A DNA stretch of 64,000 bases from Clostridia bacterium (GCA_017404545.1 JAFRCC010000006.1:8-64007), one strand, 5' to 3'. Shown: positions 668 to 59,113, numbered from the stretch's first letter. Notes: generated from the sequence alone by a model not told the origin. Numbers and translations: made by a program.

Positions 668-803
668 ACATTAATCATCAACCGTAATCATCAACCAACT
701 TGATTTTTTTATTTTTAATTAAAATTGTTTAAATCATAAAATAAGTAATTTAAAGAGTTTTTAAAAATTAATCATCAACCAAAAAATATGTTAATCATCA
801 ACC
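668..803. repeat. about 135-bp iteron block upstream of fic with 4 copies of TTAATCATCAACC (671-683, 685-696, 768-780, 791-803)
   Basis: Nearly identical block repeated at 1864-1998 immediately after the fic stop codon. Confidence 0.7.
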
Positions 804-843
804 ACATATAGTATAGTAATTAAGAAAAATAAAAGTTGATACT

Positions 844-1863
844 ATGTTTGAACCTAAATTTACATATACTGATAAAATTGTAAATTACATTGCAGAAATC
901 GCTTCAGCTAAAGAAGTTATCAACAATGCTAAAATAATCCCATTATACGATACCAAATTAAAACAGGACGCTCTTATTAGATCTTCACATTACTCAACAT
1001 CAATTGAAGGAAATCCTTTAAATTTAGACGAAGTAGAAACATTAATCAAAAACAATCAGAAACCAACTACAAAAGCAGAACTGGAAGTATTAAATTATTT
1101 CAATGTATTAAATCATTTAGACCAATATTCAGATAAAACTATTACCCAAAACACAATTTTATCCGTGCATAAAGATCTGACTAAAGATTTATTAAGAAAT
1201 CCAGAATATGAAGGTAAATTTAGGGATACTCGAGTATTTATCGGCAATCTGCATGCTCAAAAAATAAATTACGTGCCACCAGATGCTTATAAAGTGCCTT
1301 ATTTGGTAGAGGAATTATTAGACTGGTTGAACAATTCAACAGATGAAATGTATCCCGTCATTATCGCAGGAATTCTTCATTATGAATTAGTACGTATCCA
1401 CCCATTTGTTGATGGAAATGGGCGTACCAGCAGACTTATGGCAACATTAATTCTATCAGTTCACAAATTTAATATCAATAACTACTTCACTTTAGATGAA
1501 TATTATAATCAGGACAGGCAGGCTTATGTTGATGCCCTACACAGTGCTGATAAAAACCATGACTTGACTAATTGGCTGGAATATTTCTGTGGAGGAGTAT
1601 TATACTCAATTAATAAAGTTAAATCAGAAGTATTGAAATTAGGTGAAATCACATCAAAATATGATAAAACAATTCAATTAACTCCAAATGAAATTTCTGT
1701 ATTAACACTTCTTGAAGAAAAAGGACATATCCAAAACAAAGATATTCAAGAGATGTTAAAAATTACTCCCCAAGCCAGCTATAAAATTATTAGAAAACTA
1801 AAAAATAATGAATTAATTGAAAGTAGAGGAAAAGGTAGAAATACAGAATATATTTTGAAATAA
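844..1863 (+). CDS. fic: Fic/Doc family protein with C-terminal winged-helix domain
   Basis: Canonical Fic motif HPFVDGNGRTSRL. C-terminal region resembles a wHTH (LTPNEISVLTLLEEKGHIQNKDIQEMLKIT...). Confidence 0.85.
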   Translation: MFEPKFTYTDKIVNYIAEIASAKEVINNAKIIPLYDTKLKQDALIRSSHYSTSIEGNPLNLDEVETLIKNNQKPTTKAELEVLNYFNVLNHLDQYSDKTITQNTILSVHKDLTKDLLRNPEYEGKFRDTRVFIGNLHAQKINYVPPDAYKVPYLVEELLDWLNNSTDEMYPVIIAGILHYELVRIHPFVDGNGRTSRLMATLILSVHKFNINNYFTLDEYYNQDRQAYVDALHSADKNHDLTNWLEYFCGGVLYSINKVKSEVLKLGEITSKYDKTIQLTPNEISVLTLLEEKGHIQNKDIQEMLKITPQASYKIIRKLKNNELIESRGKGRNTEYILK

Positions 1864-1998
1864 AACATTAATCATCAACCTTAATCATCAACCATCATGA
1901 ATTTTTTATTTTTAATTAAAATGATTTAATTAATGAAATAAGTAATTTAATGAATTTTAAAAAATTAATCATCAACCAAAAAATATCCTAATCACCAA
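1864..1998. repeat. second copy of the iteron block (TTAATCATCAACC at 1868-1880, 1881-1893, 1965-1977, degenerate copy 1987-1998)
   Basis: Direct repeat of the 668-803 block including the AT-rich internal spacer. Confidence 0.7.
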
Positions 1999-2092
1999 CT
2001 ACAAATATCTTAAATCGAATGCTATGAAGAATATTCAAAACATTTTTATTAAGAAAAACATAATATAATTCTGAAGTGAATGGGGGAAAAAT

Positions 2093-2395
2093 ATGGATTC
2101 TTATTATAAGAGTAAAAAATTAATAATTTATTATTTTATTTCATATATTGCATGTTTTTTCCTTTTTCTAACTTTGTATATTATTTATCAGAATAATATC
2201 TTAATTTTAATCCAGTTAATTGTTTATGCGGGAATTATGAAGATATTTAGTATTAAATTTAGTGACTTAGATTGGAAATTTGAATGCATTAAAAAAGAAT
2301 ATAATGACCTATTTTTTCATGTTACACAAATAATGCCTTTTTTCATGATTTTCTTATGTTACATATCTGTAAAATTACTTAATTATCTCCCATAA
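2093..2395 (+). CDS. small hydrophobic membrane protein
   Basis: ORF with several predicted TM helices and an RBS-like GGGGGAAAAATATG upstream. Confidence 0.4.
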   Translation: MDSYYKSKKLIIYYFISYIACFFLFLTLYIIYQNNILILIQLIVYAGIMKIFSIKFSDLDWKFECIKKEYNDLFFHVTQIMPFFMIFLCYISVKLLNYLP

Positions 2396-2418
2396 TAACA
2401 TAACATTAAATAAATCGA

Positions 2419-2754
2419 ATGTCAATATTCAAAACTAAAAGGAGTGAGATTATGGGATTTTTAGAAAATCGAAGAAAAATTTTTATAACAACAATTTTAC
2501 TTCAAATCTTCACATATCTAATTACATTAGCATTAACACTGACATTAGACAATATTCTTTATTTTGGTTGTAGTTTCCTAATTTATTGCATAATTGGCAG
2601 AATTATGCTTAACCAATTAAATAACTTATATTACAATGAAAAACATGAAGATTATACTGGAGAGTATGATTTTAAATTGGATTTACTTTTTCCATTTGAC
2701 ATTATAATGATTTTAATAAATATAGCTACACTTAAAGTTTTAGGAGTAATTTAA
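2419..2754 (+). CDS. small membrane protein
   Basis: ORF preceded by AAGGAGTGAG; hydrophobic segments. Confidence 0.45.
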   Translation: MSIFKTKRSEIMGFLENRRKIFITTILLQIFTYLITLALTLTLDNILYFGCSFLIYCIIGRIMLNQLNNLYYNEKHEDYTGEYDFKLDLLFPFDIIMILINIATLKVLGVI

Positions 2755-2942
2755 CATTGACGACCACCATTAACTATTGGAAATCTACTTTTGGAAACCA
2801 TTACCTATGTTAAAAAATAATATACTTACCATCCTAAACCAAAAATTAAAAAAATATGCAAATTTGATATTCAATAATTTTAACAATCAGATTATAACTA
2901 TTGCCAATATCAAGAAAATAACAACTGAATTTCATAAAATAA

Positions 2943-3000
2943 TCAATTATTAATATGAAAAATCAAAGATTAAAAGAATTTCTTTTTAAATAACTTTTAG
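2943..3000. repeat. about 58-bp direct repeat, copy B, 180 bp upstream of the integrase gene (candidate att-type sequence)
   Basis: See copy A at 405-465. Confidence 0.6.
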
Positions 3001-3177
3001 TTATAAAAATAGAAAACTTTAAATAGTAACAAAAAGTAACTAATACATATTTTTTAAAATATCTTAAACTTTTGGTGATTCAATAATTTGAAAAATCGGA
3101 TTACTTACCAAATGCTCTCTCTCAAATTATAATATATTTCATTAATATATTATACTTATTGTCAATTAGGTGATAAT

Positions 3178-14307: not shown

Positions 14308-14341
14308 GATTTCAAGCGCTGAAACGTTTAAAAAAAGCATA

Positions 14342-14377
14342 TACATATATGTAACCCCGCTAAATCTATAATTAACG
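14342..14377 (+). promoter_or_regulatory. promoter-like bipartite element TACATATATGTA-N12-CTATAATTAACG
   Basis: Same architecture and spacing as the elements at 53433-53468 and 54212-54247. ATG of the next gene 20 nt downstream. Confidence 0.5.
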
Positions 14378-14396
14378 ACTTATGGAGATGTAAATT

Positions 14397-15931: not shown

Positions 15932-16242
15932 AAATGGTTTGGAGAGGAGATATTGAAAAACACTACGAAAATGTTGATAAAACCTACGCTGTCCTCGACC
16001 TCATAGATAATGATCAGATAACAGCAAAAAATGAGTTACGTGAGGTAATCCGTAGAGAACTACAATTATCATGTGAGTGCATCATCGATTGGCTAGATGA
16101 CTCCAATAATGAAAATTCCCGTAAATCCAAAAGATACCTCGAGAGTCTAGAACTAGGATATGATATTTGCGTAGTCCTCGAGGTTAGAACTTTTATTTAT
16201 CAATTACTCGATAAATCATTCTCTGATTTGATTAATTCCTAA
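15919..16242 (+). CDS. hypothetical protein
   Basis: ORF. Confidence 0.4.
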   Translation: MGGLKMVWRGDIEKHYENVDKTYAVLDLIDNDQITAKNELREVIRRELQLSCECIIDWLDDSNNENSRKSKRYLESLELGYDICVVLEVRTFIYQLLDKSFSDLINS

Positions 16243-16537
16243 GATTACTATTTTTTTTCAATGAATTTTACTTTAGAACTATTTTTAATTTTCCGATTAC
16301 ATAACAAATGCTCTCTCGGAAAAAGCGTATATTTTATATTTGTACTAATATACAACTAGGAGTCACATATTTCAGTTCGACTTTTTTTTATTTGTGAAAA
16401 GTTGGTTTTATTGGTGATGGTTGAGAACCTGAAAATGTGACTTCTTACTCTATTTTTAAATTTAGAACGTGCAGATTTTGTTTTATGTTAATAAAAAATC
16501 AAAATTATCCTTTTAAGAAAAATCCGAATAGGATATA

Positions 16538-16945
16538 TTAATATTTGCTATTTATTTTATAAATATCGAATTCTTCAAATATTAATCCAAAAGGCATATT
16601 TAAAAAAATACACCTAGCGCAATTTTCATTAATAAATTCATAAAAGATGGAAGTAATTCTTTTATCTAATCCCCAATCATTTATTCTAGTTGTAAATTTA
16701 TCATCAATTAAATATTTGATAATAAAACTATCTTTTTTAAAATTAATCTGAAATTGAAAGACTTCCCCGTTATATACTAATTCATAATCAATTGTTTTAG
16801 TAACGTAATTATTTTTTAATTCTAATTCAATGAGTTGTTCTAATACTTCATCAAAAGTACAATTTTGCTTTTCTTTGATTTGTTTTAATATATTATAAGT
16901 TTTTATCGGAACTGTAGTGTTGGTTTGATTTATAGGGTTAGGCAT
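16538..16945 (-). CDS. hypothetical protein, downstream partner of a small RHH gene
   Basis: ORF on the minus strand directly abutting a 43-aa RHH-like ORF. Confidence 0.4.
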   Translation of the reverse strand: MPNPINQTNTTVPIKTYNILKQIKEKQNCTFDEVLEQLIELELKNNYVTKTIDYELVYNGEVFQFQINFKKDSFIIKYLIDDKFTTRINDWGLDKRITSIFYEFINENCARCIFLNMPFGLIFEEFDIYKINSKY

Positions 16946-17077
16946 TCATAACAACTCTTTATAATAGGTTTCGGTTAATCGAGTAATTACTTCAGAAATA
17001 GTTTCACTATTATTTATTTTGCATTGCTCTAATTTGTTTTTTGTATTTTTTTTGAAAACTATTGTTTTTCTATTCAT
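16946..17077 (-). CDS. small ribbon-helix-helix-like protein (43 aa; possible antitoxin or regulator)
   Basis: MNRKTIVFKKNTKNKLEQCKINNSETISEVITRLTETYYKELL: beta-strand then two short helices. No gap before the 16538-16945 gene. Confidence 0.35.
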   Translation of the reverse strand: MNRKTIVFKKNTKNKLEQCKINNSETISEVITRLTETYYKELL

Positions 17078-17215
17078 ATTTTATAGATTTATTCTTTCAA
17101 GTTTTTAAATTATCGTTTTGTATAATTCAATAATAAGATTAATCCAACTCATTAACGAAATAAGGCGCTAAGTAATTATTAACCTTCAATAAGGTTGTTG
17201 TTTAATCTTCAGTTG

Positions 17216-18307
17216 TTAATTTTCCATTAAACTTTCTTTTTCGGAGATATAATTTGAATAAATTTGTTTTTGAATATGTTTTTTATATTTAGTTAATTGT
17301 TCTATCTCTAAATTTATCATATATTGTTCCATATACTCATAATCTGGTTCGCCTTTATTGTCAGTAGGAACTAATATTATTTGTTCTCTCATTCTTTTAG
17401 CATTAAATTTATATCCATACATATATTTTACTTTTTGTTTCAGAATTATGGTTTTAAAGAATAATAACACGTGTTTATTGTCAGCATAGTTTTTTAAGTG
17501 AAATCTTTTTACATCATCGCTGAATAAGCAAGTATAAGGATGATAAAAGTTTTCTACTACGCTTCCATTATAATTAACACCTAATACATTTTTATCAATT
17601 GAATTATTGGAATTACTAACGTAATTAGTAATTCCATTGTTTAAATATGTTGCACCAATAAATGGAGTTGAGCCTGGGCTCATATTTGCTTTAGTTAATC
17701 TTTTTCCAGATGAAATTTTAAATAAATCTCGGATATAAAACTGACTCCAATTTTTATTCTCTAATGGTTCTAAGTCCTTATAAGTTAATTTATTTATTTT
17801 TTGATTTAAGTATTCTAAGTATTTATTTAACTTTTCTTGTTCTAAATTTAACATATAATTTCTCATTAAGTCCCAATCAGGATATCCATCGCTTAAAATA
17901 GGTAATTGGATTGTAAGTTCTTCAAATCTAGTTTTTGTTAATCCATACCCGTGGTTGAATATCCCATGATATTTGTTCAGAAGAGATACTATGAAAATCA
18001 TATGGTATTTTGTTAATTCTATAATTGGTCTTAAAACAAAAACGGTACTTTTATTTGCAAAAACTGTGGGCTGATAATAGGATAATCCAGCTCCCCCATC
18101 TCCTTGTTTATTCCAAGTAATAGCATGTTTATCATTAAGTTTTTCAATATTTACAAAAGCATCTACTCCGTTTTTCATCTTTTTTGCAGATATTAGTGGA
18201 TAAGCTCCTTCAGGTAAGTTTTGTGAATCGGAAATATCATTTTCAGTTTCTAATGAAAATATATCAGATACTTTAAAAGTTCCCCAATCTTTATTATAAA
18301 TGTCCAT
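17216..18307 (-). CDS. hsdS: type I restriction-modification specificity subunit (two target-recognition domains)
   Basis: 363 aa with duplicated halves and conserved coiled-coil spacers (LEQEKLNKYLEYLNQKI; LEIEQLTKYKKHIQKQI). Immediately downstream of hsdM. Confidence 0.7.
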   Translation of the reverse strand: MDIYNKDWGTFKVSDIFSLETENDISDSQNLPEGAYPLISAKKMKNGVDAFVNIEKLNDKHAITWNKQGDGGAGLSYYQPTVFANKSTVFVLRPIIELTKYHMIFIVSLLNKYHGIFNHGYGLTKTRFEELTIQLPILSDGYPDWDLMRNYMLNLEQEKLNKYLEYLNQKINKLTYKDLEPLENKNWSQFYIRDLFKISSGKRLTKANMSPGSTPFIGATYLNNGITNYVSNSNNSIDKNVLGVNYNGSVVENFYHPYTCLFSDDVKRFHLKNYADNKHVLLFFKTIILKQKVKYMYGYKFNAKRMREQIILVPTDNKGEPDYEYMEQYMINLEIEQLTKYKKHIQKQIYSNYISEKESLMEN

Positions 18308-20197
18308 TTAATCATCCTCAAAAAGATACTCTTTTCCATGAGATATGAAATCAAATTCAAAGGTTAAATAATCAGCCATTACATTTTCTAATTCATTTTT
18401 ACTAGGAATTTCATCATTAAAATAATAATAAGAGTGTAACCATTCATCATCATCTTTAACTGTTGATTTGACCATAAATTTGCTTTCAGCGTCTTTTTCA
18501 TCTCTCCAACATTGCAATAAATGTTTTCTTCTTTCAGCAACCCTATCGGTTTCGACAATTCCAGTATGCTTTTTCAATCTGTATCCGTCATCTTTAAAAT
18601 TAATAAATTTGCTTCGTTTTTCTGGGGGGTGAGGATTATGAGCTGTGAAAATTGCTATAACTGGATTTACTCCCCGCCTACGAAATACATGTTTTGGATT
18701 GAGAGTAATAACTCCTTCTAAAGTATGCTCTTTCAAAATTTGTTTTTTAATTTCTTTATCATCATCATTTGTCCCGACCATTACTGATTGAGGAACTATA
18801 ACTGCACATTTACCATTATCTCCTAAAGAATCCAGCAATCGTTTGATAAAATTTATTTCAGACGTATCTTGAGAATATGGAGGGTTCATCAAACCAACAG
18901 TATAATTTTCTTTTTTCAAATCATCAACTTCACATCTAAAGAAATCTCTTAATTTAAGATTACTTTTACCATCTCCTCTTAAAATCATATTTGTTGTTGC
19001 TATGGTAAATAAATGAGGTCTTAATTCAATACCGTGTAAATTATTTAATTTTATATTTCTTTTTTCGCCCTCATCTGTTGTCTGAGATATCATTTTATTC
19101 ATTCCAGCAATTAAAAAACTTCCCGTACCACAACAAGGGTCAAATATTTTGTCTGTTGGTTTAATTTCTAATAATTCACAAAATAATTCAGTAATATGTT
19201 TGGGAGTCAATACAATTCCTAATGAACTACCGTCAACTCCACTATATTTAATAAATTCGGTGTAAAAATATCCTAAAATATCGACATTAACGGTAGTTAT
19301 CGATGGGAAAATTTTATTTCTTATAAATTCTGCGAAATATTTGAGGGGTGTTTTTTTTAAGGTTGGGTCTATTGTATTTAATGTTTCATCATCTTTTATT
19401 AATGTAAATTGGTTTAATATGATTTCTTCTTTATCTCCAACTTCACTACTTTGAAGGTTGTCTTTCATTGCTTCGTAGATTTTTTTTCCATCAGTTCCAC
19501 CTTTACGTTTTCCTTTTAAATCATCTAAATTTAAACCTTCATTTAGTGCTAATAATATTGCAGAAACTACTAATGGTTTTTGAGTATCACCTAATTGACC
19601 ATAGTTTCTTAAATGTTTGTTTAATTCTTTTGATTTTTTTATAACTAGTTCTAATTCCAATTCTTTTTGAGAAGGCTCCCCTAATACTTCTTCTTTATAA
19701 TAATCGTTAATATTATCCTCATTAAAATTTTCAAAATCATCTACTTCTTCCAATAATTTATAAGAATTTTCATCAACAAAGATGGGTCTTATAGTAAAAT
19801 TTTCAGTTCCACTACAACCAAAAGCAAAAGCTTTTTTATAAGAGGATTTTTTAAGAATATGGTTTGCGTAGTGCAAAGCTCCATTTTCTGCATAATTTTT
19901 AATAGCATTTTCACTAGATAAATCTAAATTCTTCTGATTATCGTCGAGGTAAAGGGCTTGTTTTGAGGATTCTCTTTTATCTTCGATGACTATTACAAAT
20001 TCTCCAACTAATCCTATAAATTCAGGAAACCCTTTGTTTTCTCCGGGATTACTTTCGATATTTTTTGTCGCTCCGTTTAATGCTTCATCAATTTCAGGAT
20101 TGCTACTTATTTGTTCATCATATTCTATATCAGCGTCCTTTAATAATCCTCGCACTATATCATCAGTCTTTCTCTCACTAACCATTTTCCCACTCAA
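18308..20197 (-). CDS. hsdM: type I N6-adenine DNA methyltransferase subunit, N-terminally extended
   Basis: Motif I DPCCGTGSFL and motif IV LMNPPYS. 629 aa. Confidence 0.8.
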   Translation of the reverse strand: MSGKMVSERKTDDIVRGLLKDADIEYDEQISSNPEIDEALNGATKNIESNPGENKGFPEFIGLVGEFVIVIEDKRESSKQALYLDDNQKNLDLSSENAIKNYAENGALHYANHILKKSSYKKAFAFGCSGTENFTIRPIFVDENSYKLLEEVDDFENFNEDNINDYYKEEVLGEPSQKELELELVIKKSKELNKHLRNYGQLGDTQKPLVVSAILLALNEGLNLDDLKGKRKGGTDGKKIYEAMKDNLQSSEVGDKEEIILNQFTLIKDDETLNTIDPTLKKTPLKYFAEFIRNKIFPSITTVNVDILGYFYTEFIKYSGVDGSSLGIVLTPKHITELFCELLEIKPTDKIFDPCCGTGSFLIAGMNKMISQTTDEGEKRNIKLNNLHGIELRPHLFTIATTNMILRGDGKSNLKLRDFFRCEVDDLKKENYTVGLMNPPYSQDTSEINFIKRLLDSLGDNGKCAVIVPQSVMVGTNDDDKEIKKQILKEHTLEGVITLNPKHVFRRRGVNPVIAIFTAHNPHPPEKRSKFINFKDDGYRLKKHTGIVETDRVAERRKHLLQCWRDEKDAESKFMVKSTVKDDDEWLHSYYYFNDEIPSKNELENVMADYLTFEFDFISHGKEYLFEDD

Positions 20198-20628
20198 AAT
20201 AATAATTCCTTGAGTAAATTTTTATTTATACTATTATTTATAGATGTTTAAAAAGAGATTATATGCATTTAATATTTAATTAAACTAATTTTAAGAGATT
20301 AATATTCAAAATTAATGATTATTAAAGCTTATTTAAAAAATAATTCTAGTATATAAATTTAGGTTTTATGTAAATTAGTTCTTATTTTCAATTATATATA
20401 GTATAATTCCCTAATATTGTATTGGAAACTAAATTTTATAGTTTTCAAACGGAAAATAAGTCAGCAAAACCTAATAGATATTTGTTCAAGTTTTAACCCT
20501 AGTAACTTTATAATTCTTGACTTATTTTCCTTTATTCCTTCCGTTCCTTTTTTTAGTGCCGATGAAATGAATAACGAGTCGGTGAAATTATGAGTATTAA
20601 GATTATTTTTAAGTGAGGTGTCTATTGT

Positions 20629-21426
20629 ATGGCTCTTCACATTGCTTTAGACGGCGTTAATGGCGTTGGAAAAACAACAATGATTGAAAAACTGAAAGAA
20701 TTTTTAGTCAATAAATCATATAACGTCAAGACACTAACCCAACCCGGTTTTAATCCTATCGTATCTATATTAGAAGATTATAATTTAACAATTTCCGAAA
20801 AGGAACTGTTGTTAGCTGTAGACAGAAGTATAACATTTAATTTTGAAAATCTTGATCAATACGATGTCGTTTTGTGGGATAGGAGCATCTTAACAAGTTA
20901 CGCTTATCACACAGACGGAATCGTAAAACCGTCATTTATTCACAATATTAACAAATTTACGCCGGAAATGGATATCATCATCGTCATTACTCATTACGAG
21001 TACACCCAAGAGCAAGATTTTACTAATCGAGTTTGTTATGACCTAATCAAAAAATACGACGTACTCATCGAAGAGTTCAGTAATGCCTTCGAGGTCAAAT
21101 ATCTAGCTGATGATCCAGATAAGATGTTGGAAAATATTGTGGAAATTATTTTTCGTGAACTTCCCACTTGCAGTTGGTGCGGTAGACTGTTTAGAAAATC
21201 CGTTTCAAATAAGAAATATTGTTGTGATAACTGCAAGAAGTTCGCTAAAGAGGAGCAAAACAGAGATAACTTCAGAAATTATTATAATCGTTACAAAGAT
21301 ACAATGAGCGAGTCAAAAAAAGGAGCTTTAGGAAGTAAAGGTGCAAACCTACACGGGAAGGCAAATAAAGACCCCGAAATTGAAGCTCGTTTGATTAACC
21401 GTGAGAAAATGAGATTGGGATTATAA
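20629..21426 (+). CDS. thymidylate (dNMP) kinase-like protein with C-terminal zinc ribbon
   Basis: P-loop LDGVNGVGKTT. TMPK-like WDRSILTSYAYH (DRY...AY motif). C-terminal CSWCG...CCDNCKK. Confidence 0.55.
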   Translation: MALHIALDGVNGVGKTTMIEKLKEFLVNKSYNVKTLTQPGFNPIVSILEDYNLTISEKELLLAVDRSITFNFENLDQYDVVLWDRSILTSYAYHTDGIVKPSFIHNINKFTPEMDIIIVITHYEYTQEQDFTNRVCYDLIKKYDVLIEEFSNAFEVKYLADDPDKMLENIVEIIFRELPTCSWCGRLFRKSVSNKKYCCDNCKKFAKEEQNRDNFRNYYNRYKDTMSESKKGALGSKGANLHGKANKDPEIEARLINREKMRLGL

Positions 21427-22536: not shown

Positions 22537-23190
22537 ATGGCTGAAGTTGGTAAAATTAATATTAATGAATTGGTATCTCCGGAATGGAATCCACGGGAAA
22601 TTTCCGACGACGAAATGGAAAAGTTAAAAACTAGTTTAAAAGAGTTCGGTTATGTAGATTACTTAGTCGTTAATAAGGTCAATAATCATATAGTCGGTGG
22701 AAACCAAAGGTATCATGCTCTAAAAGAGATGGGATTTGAGGAACTTGATGTAATATTTATTGAAGAAAGTGATTTAAATAGGGAAAAGACACTCAACATC
22801 GCACTCAATAAAATTTCCGGAGATTGGGACAACGAAAGACTTGAAGAATTATTAAATGAGTTAAATACTGCGGATATTGAATTAATCCTTACAGGGTTTG
22901 ACGAATTTGAATTAGAAGGATTATTATTTGATACTGACGAGGACTTAGACGACGAAGTTGTAGATAGAAGTATTGAAGAGGCTTTTAATAATATTTATGA
23001 AGGTTTAAGCGAGAATGAGGAACTAAACGACGCCAAATCAGACAATCGTATTATTAGTTTCTATACGGCTGATGAAGATTTGTATTATAAGTTCCTAAAC
23101 TATTTAGGATTAAATTCAATAAAGCTCGATAAAAAAAGAAATGTACGTTTGGAGGACTTAGAATGTTTAAAAGAACCGGTCATGGACTAA
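22537..23190 (+). CDS. ParB-like nuclease domain protein (possible small terminase or DNA-binding function)
   Basis: NPREIS...L..SL.EFGYVDYLVVNKVNNHIVGGNQRYHALKEMGFEELDVIF matches the ParB N-terminal/sulfiredoxin-like fold. Confidence 0.6.
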   Translation: MAEVGKININELVSPEWNPREISDDEMEKLKTSLKEFGYVDYLVVNKVNNHIVGGNQRYHALKEMGFEELDVIFIEESDLNREKTLNIALNKISGDWDNERLEELLNELNTADIELILTGFDEFELEGLLFDTDEDLDDEVVDRSIEEAFNNIYEGLSENEELNDAKSDNRIISFYTADEDLYYKFLNYLGLNSIKLDKKRNVRLEDLECLKEPVMD

Positions 23191-24395
23191 ATCTCACTAG
23201 TATATTTTTAATTTGCCCTATTCCAGTAAGCATGGACGTTTATCCGGTTTGTACTTTTAATTGTCTTTATTGCTTTGGAAAGGCTTCAGTCTCAAAGAAA
23301 AACAGAACTCAACTGAATACTCCTAAGCCTGAAACTCTCGATAATTTCTTAACAAAGCATCTCGCTGAAGCTCCTAAAGAATTAAATCAAGAGGAAAAAT
23401 TTGTAAAATGGTACATTCATAACAGAAAAGCAGTTCAAATAGGTGTGGTTAGTGATCCTTTTGACTTCTTAGAGTATAAATACGGATATACTTATGATAT
23501 TCTACAAGTTTTCAGCAAGCATCACTATCCTATCAGATTAAGTACAAAAGGTGTACTTTACGCTAAAAATAAATATCTGAAACTGTTCCGGGAAAATAGG
23601 GACGTTTGGAAACTCGGAGTAAGTCTGTTTACTAAAGATGAGGAAACTCTCACCAATGTAGAAAAAAACGGGTTTTCATACAATAAGAGATTAAAAGCAA
23701 TACGTAAAGCGGTAAATAATAGTATCGATGTTGTAGTACGTTTCGGACCATATATTCCGGGAATTAATGAGGATTATGAGGAAATAATGGCTGATTTGCA
23801 TGACGCTGGAGTTAAAGATTTTCAGCTAAGGAACTTTGAAAAGTCTCCGTTTTTAACTAACGCTGAAAAGAAAAATTACGAAAAACTAAATCAAATCAGT
23901 AAAATCGATTTAAACAAATTCTGTAAAAATCACATGAGTAAAGAGCGCCACGGTGAATTAAGTTACACTAAAAGCGTAGAATACACTAAGAAGTTCAGGA
24001 AAATAGCAGAAAAATACGGTATGAACTTCTATACTCAAAATGACCCGGCTAGAGTTCACGGATTAAGTGAGAATTGTTGTGCAGTTAAAGAGGACTTTAT
24101 TTTGAAGGATTACAATTTGTGTTCTGCACTGTTCGTTGCTAAAGAAAAAGGTGAGGTTCACTATGAAGATGTCGCTAAGAATTTTAACCATTTGTTAGGT
24201 GATATTCCAACAGCGAACACTTGTTTTTTCACTGAATCTAAGAAATTAGTTCATCTTAAAGATTTATTCCAAAACGCTTGGAACAATCCAAAATCCCGTA
24301 GAGGATTATGTAAAAGATTTGGTTATCATCTTTTACCAGACAGAGTAGATGAAAACGGAAACATAGTATACAAGATTGATGAAAAACGCTTATAA
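23163..24395 (+). CDS. radical SAM protein, SplB-like (COG1533 DNA-repair-photolyase-like)
   Basis: CTFNCLYC gives the CxxxCxxC cluster motif, embedded in VYPVCTFNCLYCFG as in SplB-like radical SAM proteins. Confidence 0.55.
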   Translation: MFKRTGHGLNLTSIFLICPIPVSMDVYPVCTFNCLYCFGKASVSKKNRTQLNTPKPETLDNFLTKHLAEAPKELNQEEKFVKWYIHNRKAVQIGVVSDPFDFLEYKYGYTYDILQVFSKHHYPIRLSTKGVLYAKNKYLKLFRENRDVWKLGVSLFTKDEETLTNVEKNGFSYNKRLKAIRKAVNNSIDVVVRFGPYIPGINEDYEEIMADLHDAGVKDFQLRNFEKSPFLTNAEKKNYEKLNQISKIDLNKFCKNHMSKERHGELSYTKSVEYTKKFRKIAEKYGMNFYTQNDPARVHGLSENCCAVKEDFILKDYNLCSALFVAKEKGEVHYEDVAKNFNHLLGDIPTANTCFFTESKKLVHLKDLFQNAWNNPKSRRGLCKRFGYHLLPDRVDENGNIVYKIDEKRL

Positions 24396-27577: not shown

Positions 27578-28147
27578 TTATTCCCATCCGTCATCGATTT
27601 TTCCACATTTATTTTCATTTACAATATTATAAAACAAACTAGCCAATTCTTTTTTATCAAATAAAACATTATATCTAACCGTATTACAAGTTATTAAAAC
27701 TTTTTTCTGGTTTAATTCAACATCAGTGATTGTATCCCAAGCTATTCTCATATCTTCTGATTTATTTAAAGCTTTTTTAAATACTAATCCATTATCCGGA
27801 ATATATAATTCAGATTTCACTCTTAATTGTTTTTTAGAAGTTTTAGTGTGCCCGCTACCATATAAATTATATCCGTGTATTTCATAGACAGTTTCAGGCA
27901 AAGTAACATAAACCGGAACAGTTAATTTATATAATAAATGAGGTCTTTGATTAAAGAATTCATCTACTAAATCAAATGTAGTGTCAGTAATCGGGTTCAA
28001 CCCCTTACTTTCGACAAATTCCTGAAAATAATTAAAAGAAATTCCAAATTCTTTACTTTTTTTTCTAGCGACTGCAAATGGATTTCCATCACCCATTATG
28101 TCATTTTTAGCTTTTTTCAATTTTTTAAACATATTCGGTTCCTTCAC
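27578..28147 (-). CDS. hypothetical protein encoded on the opposite strand inside the packaging module (moron-like)
   Basis: Only minus-strand gene between 20.6 and 56.4 kb; followed by a 270-bp AT-rich intergenic region. Confidence 0.5.
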   Translation of the reverse strand: MKEPNMFKKLKKAKNDIMGDGNPFAVARKKSKEFGISFNYFQEFVESKGLNPITDTTFDLVDEFFNQRPHLLYKLTVPVYVTLPETVYEIHGYNLYGSGHTKTSKKQLRVKSELYIPDNGLVFKKALNKSEDMRIAWDTITDVELNQKKVLITCNTVRYNVLFDKKELASLFYNIVNENKCGKIDDGWE

Positions 28148-48126: not shown

Positions 48127-50799
48127 ATGAGTAAAAGAACCTTAGCTGATGAAATGATAACTTTAATTCAAAGTGAATCAAATAACAATCCCGCTCCTAA
48201 ACCCTGCAAAATAGTTGGCAATTATGGAACTAATCCTTATTGCGACGTAGAAGTTGAAGATTTAGGTAAATTAATCCATAAAAAAACAATAGGCAGTACA
48301 GAAATAGGTTCAGAAGGTATTATTTGCTTTTTAAACGGAGATTTAAATCAAGGAATTGTAATAACTCACGATGAAACAGCTCCAATAATTGAATGGTTTA
48401 ATCAAAATAATATAATCGATTTATTGTACTATCTCGAAAATTACGGTAAAAAGTCAGATAAATCCTATTATTTGTTTAGAGGTGATTGTTGGACTATTAA
48501 CAATAATTTCGAATCTAGCGCCTCAATTACTAGTAAAACCGACAAGGATTTTACCGTTACTGGAACATTCCGAACTAGAAATGATATTGTAGGTATTTAT
48601 TGGAACTCGGAAGATGTTATTCAACACCCGTATATCAGTTATGGTTCTATAACTGATTATTCTGACGTAATCTTAGAGTTTGATTATGAAATGAGCGGTT
48701 GTAAAGATTTTTCTAATGGAGTTATAAGTATTACTGTCGGAATGAATGACGGTTCAACATATTATATGACTATGAACCGTTTTATTGAAGATAATCATGT
48801 TACTCTTGATTTTAATAATCTTACTTTACTAGCTGGAAATGTTTATATTGATTCTGAAGGTGAGGAAATAGAGATTACAGAAACAACTCCCTTAGACGTA
48901 ACTGATGTAAAATATATTATGTTTGTTATAGTTCCTTCTAACTATGTAGAAAACAAAGAACAATATACAATTATTAGAAATACGGACTTTACTTGTAAGA
49001 TAAGCAATATTGAAGTTACTAATGGTGAAATTTGTAAAGAGTATATACCGTTAGACCCTCAAGAATATCGATTGTGTGAAGGTTATGACGATTTTTATGA
49101 TTTGAACCCTTATAGAGTTTGTAGGGAAATGAGGAAACTAGGATATGTAAATTGGATTGATTTATATATCGGCGCCTCTCATTTTTACGAAAAAAGCGGG
49201 ACTGTTGGAGATTTAATAACTATATCTGAAACTTTGAATCATACTCAAACAGAAAAAATGGTTTTAAATCAAAAAGTACCCTTGAATAGAGCTTTTACTA
49301 CTTGGTTGGATTGTTATTCTCGTGAATTAAAAGCTAACGGTAGTGATAAGCTTGTTGTTAGTGTATCTATGGAGAATTTGCAGTGCCCTACTAGTTGGAG
49401 ACAAAAAGCCTGTAATGGAAATTACGCTTTAACCGGTTGGGTTCCCTCTACTTTCTTTTATAGTCCTTGTAATCCGGAAGTATTGTCTTATATGCAGTCC
49501 GTTAGTGAAGCTTGTCTTGATATAGTTGTAGCTAATGATTTACAACCTATTCTTCAGATGGGTGAGGCTTGGTGGTGGTGGAATGAAAACGATAAACCTA
49601 ATCAACCGCCTTGTTTTTATGACGATTCTACTAGAAACAGTTATTATAAAGAGTTCGGTGAGAATATTCCGGAATATTCGTCATCTTGGGAAAATTACGA
49701 TAATAAACTCACTTCTTGGCTCAATAAACAATTAGTTAAATATAGTGATGGGTTAAGAGAGGTTGTAAAAGATTCTAAGTATAAAAACGGCTTGTATATG
49801 GCTTTATTTTTCCCTCCTTCCGTTACTGATGTTGATAGGGTTCCGGCTATGATGAGAGAGGTTAATTTTTTGAAAGATGCTTATACTCCTTTGAAATTAG
49901 ATGTTTTACAGCTAGAAGATTATGATTGGGTTACTGGCGAGAGCGTACATCATGATGAAGTCTACTCGTTAGGTCAAGAATTAGGATTTAGTGAGGATAG
50001 ATTACATTATTTTGGAGGTTTTGTTCAGTATCCTGAAGATGCGCCTAAGTTTTGGAATTTAATCTCTAAATCAATGGAAACTGCAATAAATAAGAAATTT
50101 AAAGAAGTCTTTGTTTGGGCGGGTTCTCAAGTAAGACGGGACGGAAAATTCATAGGTCATTACGCTTATGAGCTAATACAAAGATTGTTAGATAAAATTC
50201 CGGACGTTAAAGCTTATGATGATTCTGATTTGGTTTCTAGAATAACTAGTGCTGAAGGACAAATTACTACGATGGGAGGGCGAGTTTCTACTTTAAATGG
50301 AGAATTAACTACTCTAGACGGCAAAGTAACTACTTTAGAAGGTCAAGTATCAACTTTAGATGGAGAACTGACTACTTTGGAGGGTCAAGTTTCTACTTTA
50401 GATGGTGAAGTAACAACCTTAGAAGGTCAAATAACACCAATAGTTGATAGTGGGTGGGTTAATTTGAGTTTAACCGGTAATTTTTACAATTTTGATTCTA
50501 CTAATAGTGTAAAATACCGTAAATATGGAAGTGAGGTTCAAATTACTGGACTTCCAGTGTTAAATGCCTATCCTTCTGCGCTAACTGAATTAATCATTGG
50601 AACGTTGCCTAGTGGTTTTAGACCAATCCGTGACGTATCTTTTGTTTGTGAGTTAAAAGACGATGATAAGCTGTGGACTTGTACCGTAAAGTCTAACGGA
50701 GAGGTTACTTTCAACCGTTTGAGAGATAATACTGGTTTTGTTGCCGGAACTGCTTTTGCAGACGTTTTAAAATTAAATGTTAATTTCTTAATTGACTAA
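48127..50799 (+). CDS. large tail fiber protein with trimeric coiled-coil stalk and C-terminal receptor-binding-like head
   Basis: 890 aa containing seven TLxGxxT heptads and a central Trp-rich region (GEAWWWWNEND). Confidence 0.55.
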   Translation: MSKRTLADEMITLIQSESNNNPAPKPCKIVGNYGTNPYCDVEVEDLGKLIHKKTIGSTEIGSEGIICFLNGDLNQGIVITHDETAPIIEWFNQNNIIDLLYYLENYGKKSDKSYYLFRGDCWTINNNFESSASITSKTDKDFTVTGTFRTRNDIVGIYWNSEDVIQHPYISYGSITDYSDVILEFDYEMSGCKDFSNGVISITVGMNDGSTYYMTMNRFIEDNHVTLDFNNLTLLAGNVYIDSEGEEIEITETTPLDVTDVKYIMFVIVPSNYVENKEQYTIIRNTDFTCKISNIEVTNGEICKEYIPLDPQEYRLCEGYDDFYDLNPYRVCREMRKLGYVNWIDLYIGASHFYEKSGTVGDLITISETLNHTQTEKMVLNQKVPLNRAFTTWLDCYSRELKANGSDKLVVSVSMENLQCPTSWRQKACNGNYALTGWVPSTFFYSPCNPEVLSYMQSVSEACLDIVVANDLQPILQMGEAWWWWNENDKPNQPPCFYDDSTRNSYYKEFGENIPEYSSSWENYDNKLTSWLNKQLVKYSDGLREVVKDSKYKNGLYMALFFPPSVTDVDRVPAMMREVNFLKDAYTPLKLDVLQLEDYDWVTGESVHHDEVYSLGQELGFSEDRLHYFGGFVQYPEDAPKFWNLISKSMETAINKKFKEVFVWAGSQVRRDGKFIGHYAYELIQRLLDKIPDVKAYDDSDLVSRITSAEGQITTMGGRVSTLNGELTTLDGKVTTLEGQVSTLDGELTTLEGQVSTLDGEVTTLEGQITPIVDSGWVNLSLTGNFYNFDSTNSVKYRKYGSEVQITGLPVLNAYPSALTELIIGTLPSGFRPIRDVSFVCELKDDDKLWTCTVKSNGEVTFNRLRDNTGFVAGTAFADVLKLNVNFLID
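50284..50430 (+). repeat. 7 x 21-bp tandem repeat inside the tail fiber gene, encoding the heptad stalk
   Basis: gtttctactttaaatggagaa / ttaactactctagacggcaaa / gtaactactttagaaggtcaa ... read directly. Confidence 0.8.
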
Positions 50800-53278: not shown

Positions 53279-53432
53279 GTCTAATTTTTTCAAGTGTATG
53301 AAATAGTTTATTTTAACTTTTTTTCTATTGATTATTTTCATTAATTAATTTAACTAATTGTTCTCTGATTAAATACTGCTTAACTAACTCACTTATTTTT
53401 TTTATTAAATTTAAGCATTTACAACGTCGTAA

Positions 53433-53468
53433 TACATATATGTACTAGAGTTCTATCTATAACTATCG
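53433..53468 (+). promoter_or_regulatory. promoter-like bipartite element TACATATATGTA-N12-CTATAACTATCG, followed by a small hairpin CGGA-TTACG-TCCG
   Basis: Identical architecture at 14342-14377 and 54212-54247. Confidence 0.5.
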
Positions 53469-53543
53469 GATTACGTCCGGTGAGAACTTGAATTTATTTA
53501 TAACTTCAAGTGAACTGTTAAAAATGATGGAGAATTGATTTAA

Positions 53544-54116: not shown

Positions 54117-54211
54117 ACACCTATTATTTTTTTTCAATAAAATCCGTTGAATTATTGTAAAACCTCACCAAATATTATGATTTTAAAATTCAATCATTTA
54201 CGTTGGAGTAA

Positions 54212-54247
54212 TACATATATGTAGCGCTGTCCTAACTATAACTATCG
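54212..54247 (+). promoter_or_regulatory. promoter-like bipartite element TACATATATGTA-N12-CTATAACTATCG, followed by a hairpin CGAGA-N9-TCTCG
   Basis: Third copy of the conserved element. Confidence 0.5.
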
Positions 54248-54289
54248 AGAGTTAAATTATCTCGTGAAATAATTAAGGAGCTGATAAAT

Positions 54290-55373: not shown

Positions 55374-56384
55374 ATGAAATATAATAGATTGGTTGTGTTG
55401 GGACTTGTTTTAATTGTTCTATTTTTAAGTATTGGAGTAACAACTGCAAATGAAAATACTACTTTAGAAGGTGTAGAATCTAATGTAGAGGATACTTTAA
55501 TGAGTTATGATGAAAATTTAGGGGAATATGGGGATTATGGGGAAAACTATAATGCTAGAATCATAGCTAACAACGTAACAGTAGAATATGATGATGAATA
55601 TGAACTATCAATCTATATTGTTGATAATAACAATAATCCAATAGAAATGGCGGAACCTTATTTTGAAGATTATTTAAATTCATGGTACGATTCTAACGGA
55701 TATTATTATTTTTATCCAAGTAATTATGATGTAGGAACTCATAATGTTACATTTACTCTTGACGACGGTCTTTATAAAGCAGAACCCGTTTCAATTAATA
55801 TGAAAATTGTTAAATCTGTATTTTATGGCGAAATTACTTGTAAATCTTATTGGGGAACTACTAAAAGCACTTTAACAATGAAAGCAACCGTTTATAATCC
55901 TTATGGAAGTTTTTATGAAGAGGGTTATGTTACTTTTAAAGTTAATGGAAAATCTTATAAAGTTAAAACTAAAGGTGGCGTAGCAACTAAAACAATAAAA
56001 ATTAAAAAATCCGGAACTTATACCTATACTGCAAAATTTATTAATAACAATTACAAATCATCAGGAGTAACTGGTAAAGCCAAATTATATGTTAAAAAAT
56101 ATAAAAAATATTATACATTTACAGCAAAAGATTATGATAAACATAAAACTACTGGTAAATTGATATATAAATTACCTTATAAGTATTATCTGAAATTATT
56201 AACTGCAAAAAGTAAAGGAAAAACTTGTTATTTGAATTTCAAAAGTAAAGTCAAAGTTTATGGAAATAAATGGTATAAAACCAGATGTGGATTTGATTTA
56301 AATAAAAAAGGTAAATTAACATTTACTTATGAGGTAGATACTTATTCCCATCCTGTTTTTGCATATAAAGTATATAATTTGTAG
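55374..56384 (+). CDS. secreted adhesin-like protein with Ig-like domain and Lys/Tyr-rich C-terminus (paralog of 4439-5728)
   Basis: Signal/TM helix. Big-like segment GEITCKSYWGTTKSTLTMKATVYNPYGSFYEEGYVTFKVNGKSYKVKTKGGVATKTIKIKK aligns with the 4439-5728 protein. Confidence 0.55.
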   Translation: MKYNRLVVLGLVLIVLFLSIGVTTANENTTLEGVESNVEDTLMSYDENLGEYGDYGENYNARIIANNVTVEYDDEYELSIYIVDNNNNPIEMAEPYFEDYLNSWYDSNGYYYFYPSNYDVGTHNVTFTLDDGLYKAEPVSINMKIVKSVFYGEITCKSYWGTTKSTLTMKATVYNPYGSFYEEGYVTFKVNGKSYKVKTKGGVATKTIKIKKSGTYTYTAKFINNNYKSSGVTGKAKLYVKKYKKYYTFTAKDYDKHKTTGKLIYKLPYKYYLKLLTAKSKGKTCYLNFKSKVKVYGNKWYKTRCGFDLNKKGKLTFTYEVDTYSHPVFAYKVYNL

Positions 56385-56908: not shown

Positions 56909-57229
56909 TTTTATGATCACTATTTTGATTTTTCGTGTAGCTCGTTGATGGTTCTTGGTGTTATAAAAAATGGTTTAATGAACTTTTATTTTATTTGCAT
57001 TTTACCTTTTTGTGTCTGTTTATTTTCCTCCGAGATTTTTATTATATTGTTTATTATTTATTTAAAATTGTTGAATAATTATTTAATATTTCTACATTGA
57101 ACGATATTGAATAAATTTAAAAACAATTAAATACAAAGTATTAACAATAGAGAAAGTATAAGTATAGGATATTTTGAAATATATCTAATACATACTTATA
57201 GAAAATTCATCTATAGGAGTGTGAAAAAT

Positions 57230-57823
57230 ATGGTAGATTCTGAAACCATTGAAGCAAAAATTTCTGATAAAAAAGAAGAATTTGAAGAAAAAGTAGATGA
57301 AAAAGTCGAAGAAGGAAAAGAAAAATTCGAAGAGAAAAAAGAAAAATACGAAGAAAGAAAAGAAAAAGGAAAAAATATTGCTGATAATGTAATTAACGAT
57401 TTATACAGAACCATTGATGAGGTCAAAGACAACCTCAAAAACATGCAAAAATCTGCTGATGAAAGATATGCCAACTACAAAAAATCAACTGTCCAAACAT
57501 TAGACGTTGATCTTGTTGAAACCAAAGATATCTACTACATCAAAGCAGCAGTACCTGGTGCTGAAAAAGAAGATGTGTTGATTGAAGCTGGTGACAACGA
57601 CATTACTATTGAAACCACTTTCAAACCATACATTGAAGAATTCGCAGAAGATGAAGAAGCTGAATTAATCGCTTCTAGCATCAAAGCCGGAAGATGTGTT
57701 AAAACAATCAGATTCGAAAACAGCCTTGATTTAGAAAACATCACTGCAAAATTCGCAAACGGAATCGTTACTATAACCATTCCAAAACTAATCATACCAA
57801 AACATAAAATCAATGTGGAATAG
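57230..57823 (+). CDS. hsp20: small heat-shock protein Hsp20/alpha-crystallin family (ATG 57230 preferred over GTG 57221)
   Basis: K/E-rich N-terminus then alpha-crystallin domain (DVDLVETKDIYYIKAAVPGAEKEDVLIEA...GIVTITIPK). RBS AGGAGTG. Confidence 0.8.
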   Translation: MVDSETIEAKISDKKEEFEEKVDEKVEEGKEKFEEKKEKYEERKEKGKNIADNVINDLYRTIDEVKDNLKNMQKSADERYANYKKSTVQTLDVDLVETKDIYYIKAAVPGAEKEDVLIEAGDNDITIETTFKPYIEEFAEDEEAELIASSIKAGRCVKTIRFENSLDLENITAKFANGIVTITIPKLIIPKHKINVE

Positions 57824-57850
57824 TCTCCACATTTTATCCCTTTTTTTAAA
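57813..57850 (+). terminator. hairpin ATGTGGA-ATAGTC-TCCACAT plus T-tract at the hsp20 stop
   Basis: Read directly. Confidence 0.45.
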
Positions 57851-58102
57851 AATTAATATCTTACTTAATGATTTAAGAAGTTTTAATTTCTTTTTCAATC
57901 ATTACAATTTAATCATCCATGAAAAATTAATTAGACCATTTTCTTTGTAAATCATTATCATTATACTTGATTTTTTCCTGGCATTCACTATATTTTGATA
58001 CTCCTTCCTCAAACCATTTTAAACACATGTCTTTATTTTTGTTATAATGTTCGCAGTCCAAATGGATGTTTTCTTCAGCCATATTAAAACACTTCCTTAT
58101 TT

Positions 58103-59113
58103 TTAATATCTTACTTTACCAATGTGTCTTGTTGCACCAGGATCTTCACCATTGAAGTGAGCCAAGTAATATACAAACCATTCAAGTGGAATTACAAAGA
58201 TGAATGGAGACAATAACTTATCAACATCAGCATAATCCTTTAAGTCATAGATTATTGATTTGGCTTCAAGGTTTTTACAGAAATCAATAGCTTTTTGTGT
58301 GATTTCATCAGATTTTAAATCAGATGTTAAAAAGATTACCGGAACATCCTTTTCTGCCCTTTCAATCAGACCATGTCTGAATTCTGCTGAATATTCAGGA
58401 CAAGCATGTTTGATTGCTCCTTCCATAAGCATGGTCATGGCCAATTTGTATGAAAGACCAAAGTTAGGTCCACTTCCCAAACAGTAGAAAATGTCTTCAT
58501 CTTTAAACTCTTCGGCCAACACTTTATTTTCATCTTCAGTTGCAACCAAAAGTTTTTCAAGCATTTTAGGCATTTCAGCTAATTGTGCCAGCAGCTCTGA
58601 TTTTTCCTCATAATCTGATGCCTTAAATAAGATTTGATATAAACAGGCAAGCTGGGTAATGTATGTTTTAGTACCTAAAATTGCAGTTTCTCTTTCACAT
58701 CTTGTAACAATTGGAGTTTTTGCTTCTTTAATCATGGAACTGTCAGGCTCGTTTGAAATGGATACTGTGTGTATTCCAAATTCATTGCATCTTCTTAAAG
58801 ATGCAAGAGTATCAGCAGTTTCACCTGACTGAGAAGTAAAAATAGCTATGGAGTTTTCATCATTTACCAATTTCTTGTTGTAGTAAAATTCATAACCAGT
58901 ATAGACTTCTATGTTCATGTTAGTACTGGACATCCTAATTGCATCCCTAACACTGTAACAAGTTGAAATAGAACTACCGCAACCAATTAAATAGATTTTA
59001 TCCACTTGTGAAATTAAATCAGACACGTCATCCATCTTTGGCATTTCACTTTCAAATGTTTTTTTAAGTGAATCAGGTTGTTCCATCATTTCGTCATACA
59101 TTTTATATTTCAT
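58103..59113 (-). CDS. SIS-domain sugar-phosphate isomerase/aminotransferase-like protein (two SIS domains)
   Basis: [10 protein letters not shown]...[11 protein letters not shown] and [19 protein letters not shown] are SIS-fold phosphosugar-binding motifs. Confidence 0.6.

Follow-up and report, generated by a model that had tools for sequence, protein, structure and literature searches.

A BcgI-like Type IIB restriction-modification system predicted in the cargo slot of a tailed Methanobrevibacter provirus

Background

Two-chain Type IIB restriction-modification (R-M) enzymes, of which BcgI is the archetype, are the described systems closest to the locus considered here, a block of antisense genes on a provirus. 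The provirus lies in a 64,000-nucleotide (nt) stretch of DNA (JAFRCC010000006.1, positions 8-64007, assembly GCA_017404545.1), which we call the window. Glu53 of BcgI lies in a PD..EXK motif, and the substitution E53A abolishes cleavage (PMC3592470). The Type IIB enzyme BsaXI has an N-terminal PD-(D/E)xK site in which D90, E105 and K107 are essential for cleavage (PMC11997821). A system carried by Staphylococcus phage phi-42 was, according to a citation in PMC6532042, published as the BcgI-like Sau42I (Dempsey 2005).

R-M systems and other defence genes have been reported in archaeal head-tailed proviruses (PMC11705971). Neither that report nor PMC11375127 describes a BcgI-like system in a methanogen virus, and Type IIB and BcgI are both absent from a review of archaeal R-M (PMC11033074).

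An earlier note on the window had read four antisense genes at 16538-20197 as a single type I R-M island with an adjoining small gene pair. Our analysis indicates that the products of the two large genes form a complete R-M enzyme of the BcgI-like, two-chain Type IIB class, a reading to which we assign a probability of about 0.88. The block as a whole consists of two modules with independent distributions, the R-M genes and the small pair, and so is not the one island proposed.

Two antisense genes encode a predicted nuclease-methyltransferase and its specificity subunit

All four minus-strand open reading frames (ORFs) proposed in the earlier note are present. The R-M genes and their parts are given below, with lengths in amino acids (aa).

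18308-20197 (-): large ORF, "HsdM" of the earlier note, 629 aa counted from TTG
18308-20185 (-): A (RM) subunit, BcgI-like Type IIB, 625 aa, with an N-terminal PD-(D/E)XK nuclease, a helical connector, a gamma-class N6-adenine methyltransferase (MTase) and a C-terminal tail
19976-20026 (-): nuclease motif P54-E55-x12-E68-D69-K70 (PEFIGLVGEFVIVIEDK), identified from homologue alignments and the fold model
18875-19141 (-): MTase catalytic region, with motif I (DPCCGTG) at 19121-19141 and motif IV (NPPY) at 18875-18886
17216-18307 (-): B (S) subunit for specificity (363 aa), carrying two target-recognition domains (TRDs) with helical spacers between them
17224-20246 (-): mobile A+S cassette, with a promoter-like TATAAATA box at 20223-20230

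The large ORF does extend over 629 aa from a TTG codon, as the earlier note had it, but its true start is the ATG at 20185, which gives 625 aa. This start is indicated by an identical database protein and by the N-termini of all aligned homologues (MxNE[KR]). The N-terminus, described in that note as an extension of HsdM, is instead a conserved nuclease domain.

The A protein matches the PADLOC profile for restriction endonuclease-MTase fusions (REase_MTase_IIG, PDLC03602) with E = 4e-165, residues 6-627 of the 629-aa ORF aligning to profile positions 2-631 of 637. The best of the PADLOC MTase_I profiles is far worse (E = 3e-42). The S protein matches Specificity_II (PDLC03591) with E = 1e-85 over residues 8-336 (profile positions 7-330 of 341), and Pfam finds two Methylase_S stretches in its 363 aa, in agreement with the two-TRD hsdS proposed earlier. 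The DPCCGTG and NPPY motifs reported for the large ORF were both found, and in the homologue alignment the MTase motifs DPCxGTG and NPPY are conserved or invariant.

The earlier note had speculated that a segment near the N-terminus of this protein, GEFVIVIEDKRE, might be an E-x-K nuclease motif. This guess proved to be the key to the locus, as the segment corresponds to P54-E55...E68-D69-K70. Alignments of 20 and 24 homologues, the phi-42 ORF included, show no variation at G52, P54, E68 and K70 and at least 90% conservation at E55 and D69. The motif is probably the counterpart of the one around Glu53 in BcgI and of D90, E105 and K107 in BsaXI. Two blocks downstream of the motif, YAxNGAxHYA and FAFGCSG, are conserved in the same alignments. 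Relatives of A occur on at least 98 viral contigs in IMG/VR, of which 80 were fetched. The P[DE]..[DE]xK signature is kept in all 70 of those whose N-terminus is covered, and S lies directly downstream of A in 66 of the 72 with enough downstream sequence.

An AlphaFold (AF2) model of A residues 1-200 has a predicted local distance difference test score (pLDDT) of 89 and a predicted template modelling score (pTM) of 0.82. In this model P54-E55 lie before the first strand, and the second strand ends with E68-x-K70. The best-ranked PDB matches from Foldseek are the Hjc/Hje resolvases, RecU, HincII and bunyavirus cap-snatching endonucleases, all of which are PD-(D/E)XK proteins, with probabilities of up to 0.97. 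A profile of the A family also matches RM.BsaXI at positions 176-524 (E = 7e-13). This match reaches about 110 residues further towards the N-terminus than the matches to type I HsdM and therefore covers the helical connector between nuclease and MTase. Taken together, the alignments and the model indicate that A carries a nuclease domain of PD-(D/E)XK fold, with its catalytic residues intact, and the MTase motifs in one 625-aa chain.

Ratios of nonsynonymous to synonymous substitution rates (dN/dS) between the provirus and a chromosomal copy of the cassette are 0.08 for A, 0.10 for its nuclease domain alone and 0.12 for S. A+S is selectively maintained and is predicted to be a complete R-M system, not a methylase-only remnant.

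The alternative put forward in the earlier note is that the genes are a type I HsdM and HsdS without HsdR, either methylating only, in a protective or epigenetic role, or borrowing the HsdR of the host. Pfam reports nothing in the two proteins beyond N6_Mtase (A residues 305-444, E = 2e-33) and Methylase_S, which accounts both for that reading and for the public annotation as type I. More than 6,500 full-length homologues of A exist, and nearly all the named ones are labelled "N-6 DNA methylase/HsdM". The best sequence matches of A among solved structures are likewise type I HsdM subunits. However, the HsdM-like part covers only residues 290-530 or so, and the first 150 or so residues form the conserved PD-(D/E)XK domain, which is under purifying selection. 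The fusion profile outscores MTase_I by the margin given above, and A is homologous to an R-M ORF of phage phi-42. The domain content thus already contradicts a type I pair, which we regard as highly improbable. It is also unlikely that the nuclease domain is dead, as all its motif residues are intact.

The closest phage DNA matches are in the Staphylococcus phi-42 group. Full-length comparison with the two ORFs of the phi-42 record X94423, which bears the title "restriction modification system", gives identities of 44% for A and 31% for S, and in a related Staphylococcus phage the pair is annotated bcgIA/bcgIB.

No gene for HsdR, ResIII or another helicase-type restriction protein was found on the provirus, both ends of which are inside the window. 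Relatives likewise occur as A+S pairs with no further R-M gene. No hsdR was seen among the other genes of the window either, as the earlier note had observed. The note had also considered that hsdR might lie just outside the window on the same element; the element is wholly inside and contains none. The features that define type I systems, a separate HsdR with an ATP-dependent translocase and a nuclease-free HsdM, are thus absent here. In place of a methylation-only or host-dependent function, motif, fold and profile point to a self-contained Type IIB enzyme whose A subunit holds both nuclease and MTase. All the features defining two-chain Type IIB systems that could be checked from sequence are present at the locus.

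Shared specificity and the question of counter-defence

The A and S genes meet without a gap (GAT GAT TAA ATG; TAAATG). The GAGGATGATTAAATG junction and a Shine-Dalgarno-like sequence in the end of A, GAGGATGAT, predict that translation of S is coupled to that of A. The TATAAATA boxes lie 26-45 nt upstream of start codons, within the segment shared with the chromosome of Methanobrevibacter olleyae.

The S protein is 81% identical to the M. olleyae copy and 78% identical to the copy in a sister provirus described below, and the chromosomal copy is closer to that of the sister provirus than to that of the window. The TRDs of the three copies are 78-93% identical and the helical spacers 56-72%. 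As the TRDs are better conserved than the helices, the specificity of the three copies is probably the same.

This resemblance to a chromosomal Methanobrevibacter system, TRDs included, lends itself to another explanation, in which the nuclease has decayed and the pair is mainly a virus-borne MTase that shields virion DNA from host R-M of the same specificity. If specificity is shared, virus DNA methylated at that site would be immune to hosts with such a system, and archaeal viruses often carry MTases against host R-M (PMC11375127, PMC13465236). The catalytic motif is intact, though, and the dN/dS of 0.10 for the nuclease domain speaks against decay. Self-protection is moreover compatible with restriction and is better seen as an added benefit of a complete system than as an alternative to it. 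We consider a decayed, purely protective pair very unlikely.

Proposed function

If the predicted Type IIB enzyme behaves as BcgI and BsaXI do, an A2B complex would read a bipartite site through the two TRDs of B. At that site the complex would methylate adenines in both strands of the host's and the provirus's DNA; in unmodified incoming DNA it would cut both strands on each side of the site. The A2B stoichiometry, the double-sided cleavage and the role in defence are proposed by analogy with these enzymes. Cargo genes that are expressed in the lysogen usually sit on the strand opposite to the lytic genes. The cassette has this orientation and promoter-like boxes of its own, and would thus be expressed from the provirus in the lysogen. 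The main role of the system is most likely defence of the lysogen against foreign DNA and other viruses; stabilising the provirus and pre-methylating virion DNA are possible further roles.

Several points weigh against this interpretation. The class assignment draws on profiles, the phi-42 locus and annotation, with the link to BcgI itself made through profiles and the bcgIA/bcgIB naming. The Foldseek E-values for the nuclease domain are marginal, at about 1e-2. The case for expression in the lysogen consists of the strand and the promoter-like boxes. An attempt to infer the recognition sequence yielded none. Finally, the BcgI MTase acts on hemimethylated sites only (PMC4027205), which leaves unexplained how such a system would be established in a naive host after lysogenisation.

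Distribution and origin of the cassette

The identical A protein occurs in 20 contigs; six of these, from six samples, were viewed in context and all carry the same provirus. In the chromosome of M. olleyae (L009) a protein 88% identical to A is encoded among housekeeping genes. The DNA of the cassette is 84% identical to this locus over 3,030 nt (window 17224-20246), a match that begins about 50 nt upstream of A and stops at the end of S. A 64%-identical homologue of A lies in a TIR/DpnII/McrBC-like defence island.

The sister provirus (L239; GCA_964297575.1) is related through TerL (88% identical), a radical SAM protein (92%) and ERCC4 (84%), and carries A and S (87% and 78% identical) in the same slot and orientation as the window. 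Homology between the two is continuous from 21945 to 17222 at 78%, like the backbone, ends at the end of S and resumes near 15981. Because A+S shows backbone-level identity, the cassette was already in the common ancestor of both viruses. The part that varies between the two proviruses is the region after S.

The slot lies in the interval between ERCC4 and the gene for a thymidylate-kinase-like (Tmk-like) protein. No R-M genes were found in this interval in more distant relatives (TerL 65-84% identical), one of which carries small antisense ORFs of other kinds in it. No relatives of the flanking Tmk-like protein were found in IMG/VR, and the large terminase was used in its place in the search for related viruses.

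At 12983-19000 in L239, after the BcgI-like pair, there is a second R-M system, consisting of a DpnII-family endonuclease and a D12-class Dam-like MTase, and a DUF7004 gene is also present. In this virus lineage the slot thus serves as a small defence island.

A separate module of two small genes

Two shorter genes follow the R-M genes on the same strand:

16946-17077 (-): 43-aa putative minimal ribbon-helix-helix (RHH)-type protein, with weak DUF7557/VapB_antitox matches
16538-16945 (-): 135-aa protein, with a putative N-terminal RHH-type (DUF7557/VapB-like) domain and a C-terminal domain of about 85 aa whose fold has no assignment

As described in the earlier note, these genes abut without a gap (TTA TGA ATG; TGAATG). 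The assignment of the 43-aa protein to the RHH fold, also made there, agrees in kind with its Pfam matches, which stay below the cut-off (DUF7557, E = 7e-4 and 19.4 bits against a cut-off of 25; VapB_antitox, E = 0.02), and its profile has no match among solved structures. Relatives of the protein are 73-81% identical and its dN/dS is 0.09-0.16; both genes of the pair are under purifying selection. About 27 nt before the ATG there is a conserved TATA box (ATTTAAAAA, 17102-17110), and there is no Shine-Dalgarno sequence. All the relatives share a TTTAAATA-type TATA box at this distance and likewise lack a Shine-Dalgarno sequence. Leaderless first genes show this pattern, and the 43-aa gene is probably the first of its own leaderless transcription unit.

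The 135-aa protein belongs to an orphan family with 13 clusters in a word-indexed search and 21 representatives in an exhaustive profile search of 1.84 billion proteins. True members have about 130-140 aa; a 588-aa ankyrin protein in the profile search was rejected as a spurious match. Distant members score 27.7-29.9 bits against DUF7557 (cut-off 25) and 27.5 against VapB_antitox (cut-off 27.9) at residues 10-45 or so, and the protein of the window is itself below the cut-off. As these distant members pass the DUF7557 cut-off, the 135-aa partner would itself be of RHH type with an extra domain of about 85 aa. Profile-profile comparison of the 43-aa protein with the N-terminus of the 135-aa protein was not significant. 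The C-terminal domain was modelled at a pLDDT of about 90 and has no significant match in the PDB or BFVD.

The pair (41-45 aa and 131-140 aa, abutting or overlapping) also occurs in at least four other tailed-virus contigs, which have genes for TerL, RecT, HNH and an integrase homologue and no BcgI-like genes. It lies there at a divergent junction beside the packaging block, and DNA identity with the window, 70-72%, is confined to 16554-17092. Conversely, the pair was found beside A+S at none of the 80 IMG/VR loci, nor at the M. olleyae locus, nor in the sister provirus. We conclude from this distribution that the pair is to be regarded as a separate viral transcription unit outside the R-M system, contrary to the link with the R-M island drawn in the earlier note.

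That note had also suggested a toxin-antitoxin pair. A small RHH gene abutting a larger gene is the classic layout of a type II antitoxin and toxin, the VapB_antitox matches, weak as they are, fit it, and Methanobrevibacter virus MSTV1 has VapB-like antitoxins in its variable region (PMC11375127). Yet the 135-aa protein has no toxin match in Pfam, NCBIfam, PADLOC or PHROG and no matching fold, and its own N-terminus is probably of RHH type. The 43-aa protein would be a bare RHH domain with no space for a toxin-binding tail. A role of the pair as controller of the R-M genes would sit badly with its own promoter, with its occurrence apart from such genes in the other virus contigs, and with the presence of A+S without the pair on the M. 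olleyae chromosome, in the sister provirus and at 80 of 80 IMG/VR loci. We therefore judge a toxin-antitoxin pair or an R-M controller to be unlikely. The 43-aa and 135-aa proteins are most likely DNA-binding regulators of the virus.

A repeated element upstream of the integrase gene

A 22-nt element occurs twice in the window:

3100-3121 (+): copy 1, 48 nt inward from attL, immediately followed by a TATA-like box and with the int ATG 57 nt downstream
16296-16317 (+): copy 2 (ATTACATAACAAATGCTCTCTC), followed by a BRE (transcription factor B recognition element)/TATA-like box, in a segment that varies between the sister proviruses and pointing into the antisense block

The repeat reported in the earlier note is real, although the coordinates given there were one base off: the degenerate pattern has two exact matches in the window, and none of 100 shuffles contained a match. 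Copy 2 is followed by AAAGCGTATATTTTATA and a ribosome-binding-site-like TAGGAG, with no ORF after it.

In an unrelated virus contig (L013), a copy of the core of the element with one mismatch precedes the gene for an integrase homologue (35% identity, E = 2e-68) by 58 nt. The core is also found at the left edge of antisense cargo of another kind in a related provirus of Methanobrevibacter, and about 460 nt past the RHH/137-aa pair in another contig. The exact 14-mer CCAAATGCTCTCTC has more than 120 matches in IMG/VR, many of which are expected by chance in a collection of that size.

The earlier note had taken the repeat as a sign of recombinational acquisition. This did not hold up: the edges of A+S in the sister provirus lack the repeat, and the element is conserved about 57 nt upstream of int genes. 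As its copies are neither att cores nor flank A+S, the repeat gives no evidence on how the R-M genes were acquired. The element may be either an operator of the int promoter or an arm-type site of the integrase. The two copies were also considered as att sites of a nested 13-kb element running from int to 16.3 kb. This was rejected, as the replication and packaging modules are syntenic across related viruses.

A more speculative idea is that the RHH/135-aa pair is an undescribed regulatory module of tailed methanogen viruses, such as a lysogeny or immunity switch, with the 22-nt element ATTACWTAMCAAATGCTCTCTC as its operator. The box at copy 2 would then fire antisense into the block of RHH, 135-aa and R-M genes and couple integrase expression to silencing of the cargo. 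We offer this as a doubtful though conceivable extension.

The provirus, its ends and its host

The ends of the provirus are marked by two att cores:

3037-3052 (+): attL core TAACTAATACATATTT, left end of the provirus of about 54.1 kb
57182-57197 (+): attR core TATCTAATACATACTT, right end of the provirus

When the two window ends were compared directly for att repeats, only chance 13-15-mers came up. The ends were recognised from a contig with an empty site (L244), which aligns to the window at 669-3052 and at 57182-58213 with 99.7-99.8% identity. The alignments overlap by 16 nt, which defines the att cores, the provirus length of about 54.1 kb and the placement of the whole element inside the window. 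The earlier note had put the antisense genes inside a provirus, and the integrase, packaging and tail genes as well as these ends bear this out. The provirus encodes an integrase, MCM helicase, ERCC4 nuclease, TerL, portal, tape measure and a non-contractile tail sheath protein.

The provirus has a GC content of 31%, compared with 28% in the R-M genes, 22% in the RHH/135-aa pair and 21-25% in the spacers, which are AT-rich as the earlier note stated. The antisense block has a negative GC skew and a GC content below that of the rest of the element. An Rfam scan of the window found no RNA families.

Empty-site contigs have the same host genes, in the order SIS-HSP20-100 aa-100 aa-Fic, without the provirus. 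The lysogenic (L005) and empty-site (L244) versions occur together in sample ERZ28653819, and the provirus is therefore polymorphic and probably active in that population. A TIGR00300-family protein in the host flank is identical to one from metagenome-assembled genomes (MAGs) of Methanobrevibacter sp. On this comparison the "MAG: Clostridia bacterium" label of the public 64,081-nt contig (proteins MBQ34079xx) is evidently a binning or taxonomy error.

Just left of attL, at 844-1863 (+), is a full-length SoFic-type defence gene (Fic/DOC with a winged helix-turn-helix; PADLOC E = 5e-57). It is flanked by direct repeats of 78-85% identity (362-501 with 2899-3039, and 640-810 with 1837-2007). As the gene is also present in the empty-site contigs, it belongs to the host side.

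Several other features of the provirus were recorded. A gene at 20629-21426 encodes the thymidylate-kinase-like protein, which has a C-terminal zinc-finger tail, upstream of a ParB_N-domain gene that overlaps the radical SAM gene (22537-24395, +), whose product has the 92% identity to its sister-provirus counterpart given above. ParB-MTase fusion profiles are matched by the ParB_N protein in their N-terminal part only. In the sister provirus there is, in addition, a ParB_N-N6_N4_MTase fusion. This set of genes may be a DNA-modification module. A second off-strand gene (27578-28147, -; 189 aa) lies between the packaging and portal genes. It is conserved in metagenomic copies of the provirus, has no Pfam or PADLOC matches, and may be another cargo gene.

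The sequence (A)GAGCTGATAAATATG recurs at the plus-strand gene starts at 6144, 7410, 9034, 12570, 31764, 50769 and 54275, an unusually uniform translation-initiation context across the modules of the provirus. A promoter-like intergenic sequence, ATACATATATGTA…CTATAACTATCG, occurs three times (14341-14382, 53394-53473 and 54173-54252, +), with up to 75 nt at 75% identity. Within the gene for the 890-aa non-contractile tail sheath protein, 21-nt tandem repeats at 50254-50444 (+) encode heptad-like repeats (DUF7310 coiled coil). One more copy of the 21-nt unit is found at 55458-55489, in the gene for a 336-aa Ig-like protein.

Comparison with known systems

The reading proposed here would correct a common annotation error, by which BcgI-like systems are tallied as orphan or incomplete type I methylases, and the correction bears on counts of defence systems in archaeal genomes and viruses. 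It also describes a lineage of tailed Methanobrevibacter proviruses in which a restriction system occupies a fixed cargo slot and is shared with host chromosomes. This is relevant to virus-host dynamics among rumen and gut methanogens and to the genetic transformation of methanogens.

Type I R-M systems resemble the window system in that their HsdM and HsdS are homologous to its MTase domain and S subunit. They differ from it in that the window system has no HsdR or translocase and a nuclease fused to the MTase.

BcgI of Bacillus coagulans has the same architecture, with an A chain that joins a PD...EXK nuclease to an NPPY MTase and an HsdS-like B chain. Sizes also agree, with 625 and 363 aa here and PADLOC profile lengths of 637 and 341. 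Chains of about the sizes found in the window are also consistent with the A2B mass published for BcgI, 182.4 kDa (PMC3592470, PMC4027205). The comparison with BcgI is one of architecture and size; the A2B assembly, the need for S-adenosylmethionine, the two-site requirement and the double-sided cleavage are features of BcgI itself.

BsaXI, known from cryo-electron microscopy structures (8W0P, 8W2P and 8W2Q), is a Type IIB enzyme of (RM)2S form in which a PD-(D/E)xK domain at the N-terminus is joined to an MTase by a multi-helical connector, as predicted here. However, RM.BsaXI has 916 aa with a "knob" and a "paddle", for both of which the 625-aa protein is too short in full, and the two nuclease domains have no detectable sequence similarity.

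The variable regions of Methanobrevibacter viruses (MSTV1, "Usuviridae") offer a parallel to the cargo slot, being hypervariable and carrying RHH/VapB-like genes and MTases (PMC11375127). The window virus belongs to another lineage, with a backbone of MCM, ERCC4 and radical SAM genes.

Sau42I is the nearest counterpart in setting, a two-gene A(RM)+B(S) system on an integrated tailed virus in which the PEF...EDK, DPCxGxG and NPPY motifs align with those of the window. In contrast, the window virus has an archaeal host (Methanobrevibacter), an MCM helicase and archaeal promoters. The TRDs also differ, so that the specificity is presumably different. A BcgI-like system stably carried by a lineage of methanogen viruses is thus a new instance and not a new kind, as carriage on a prophage is known from Staphylococcus with Sau42I.

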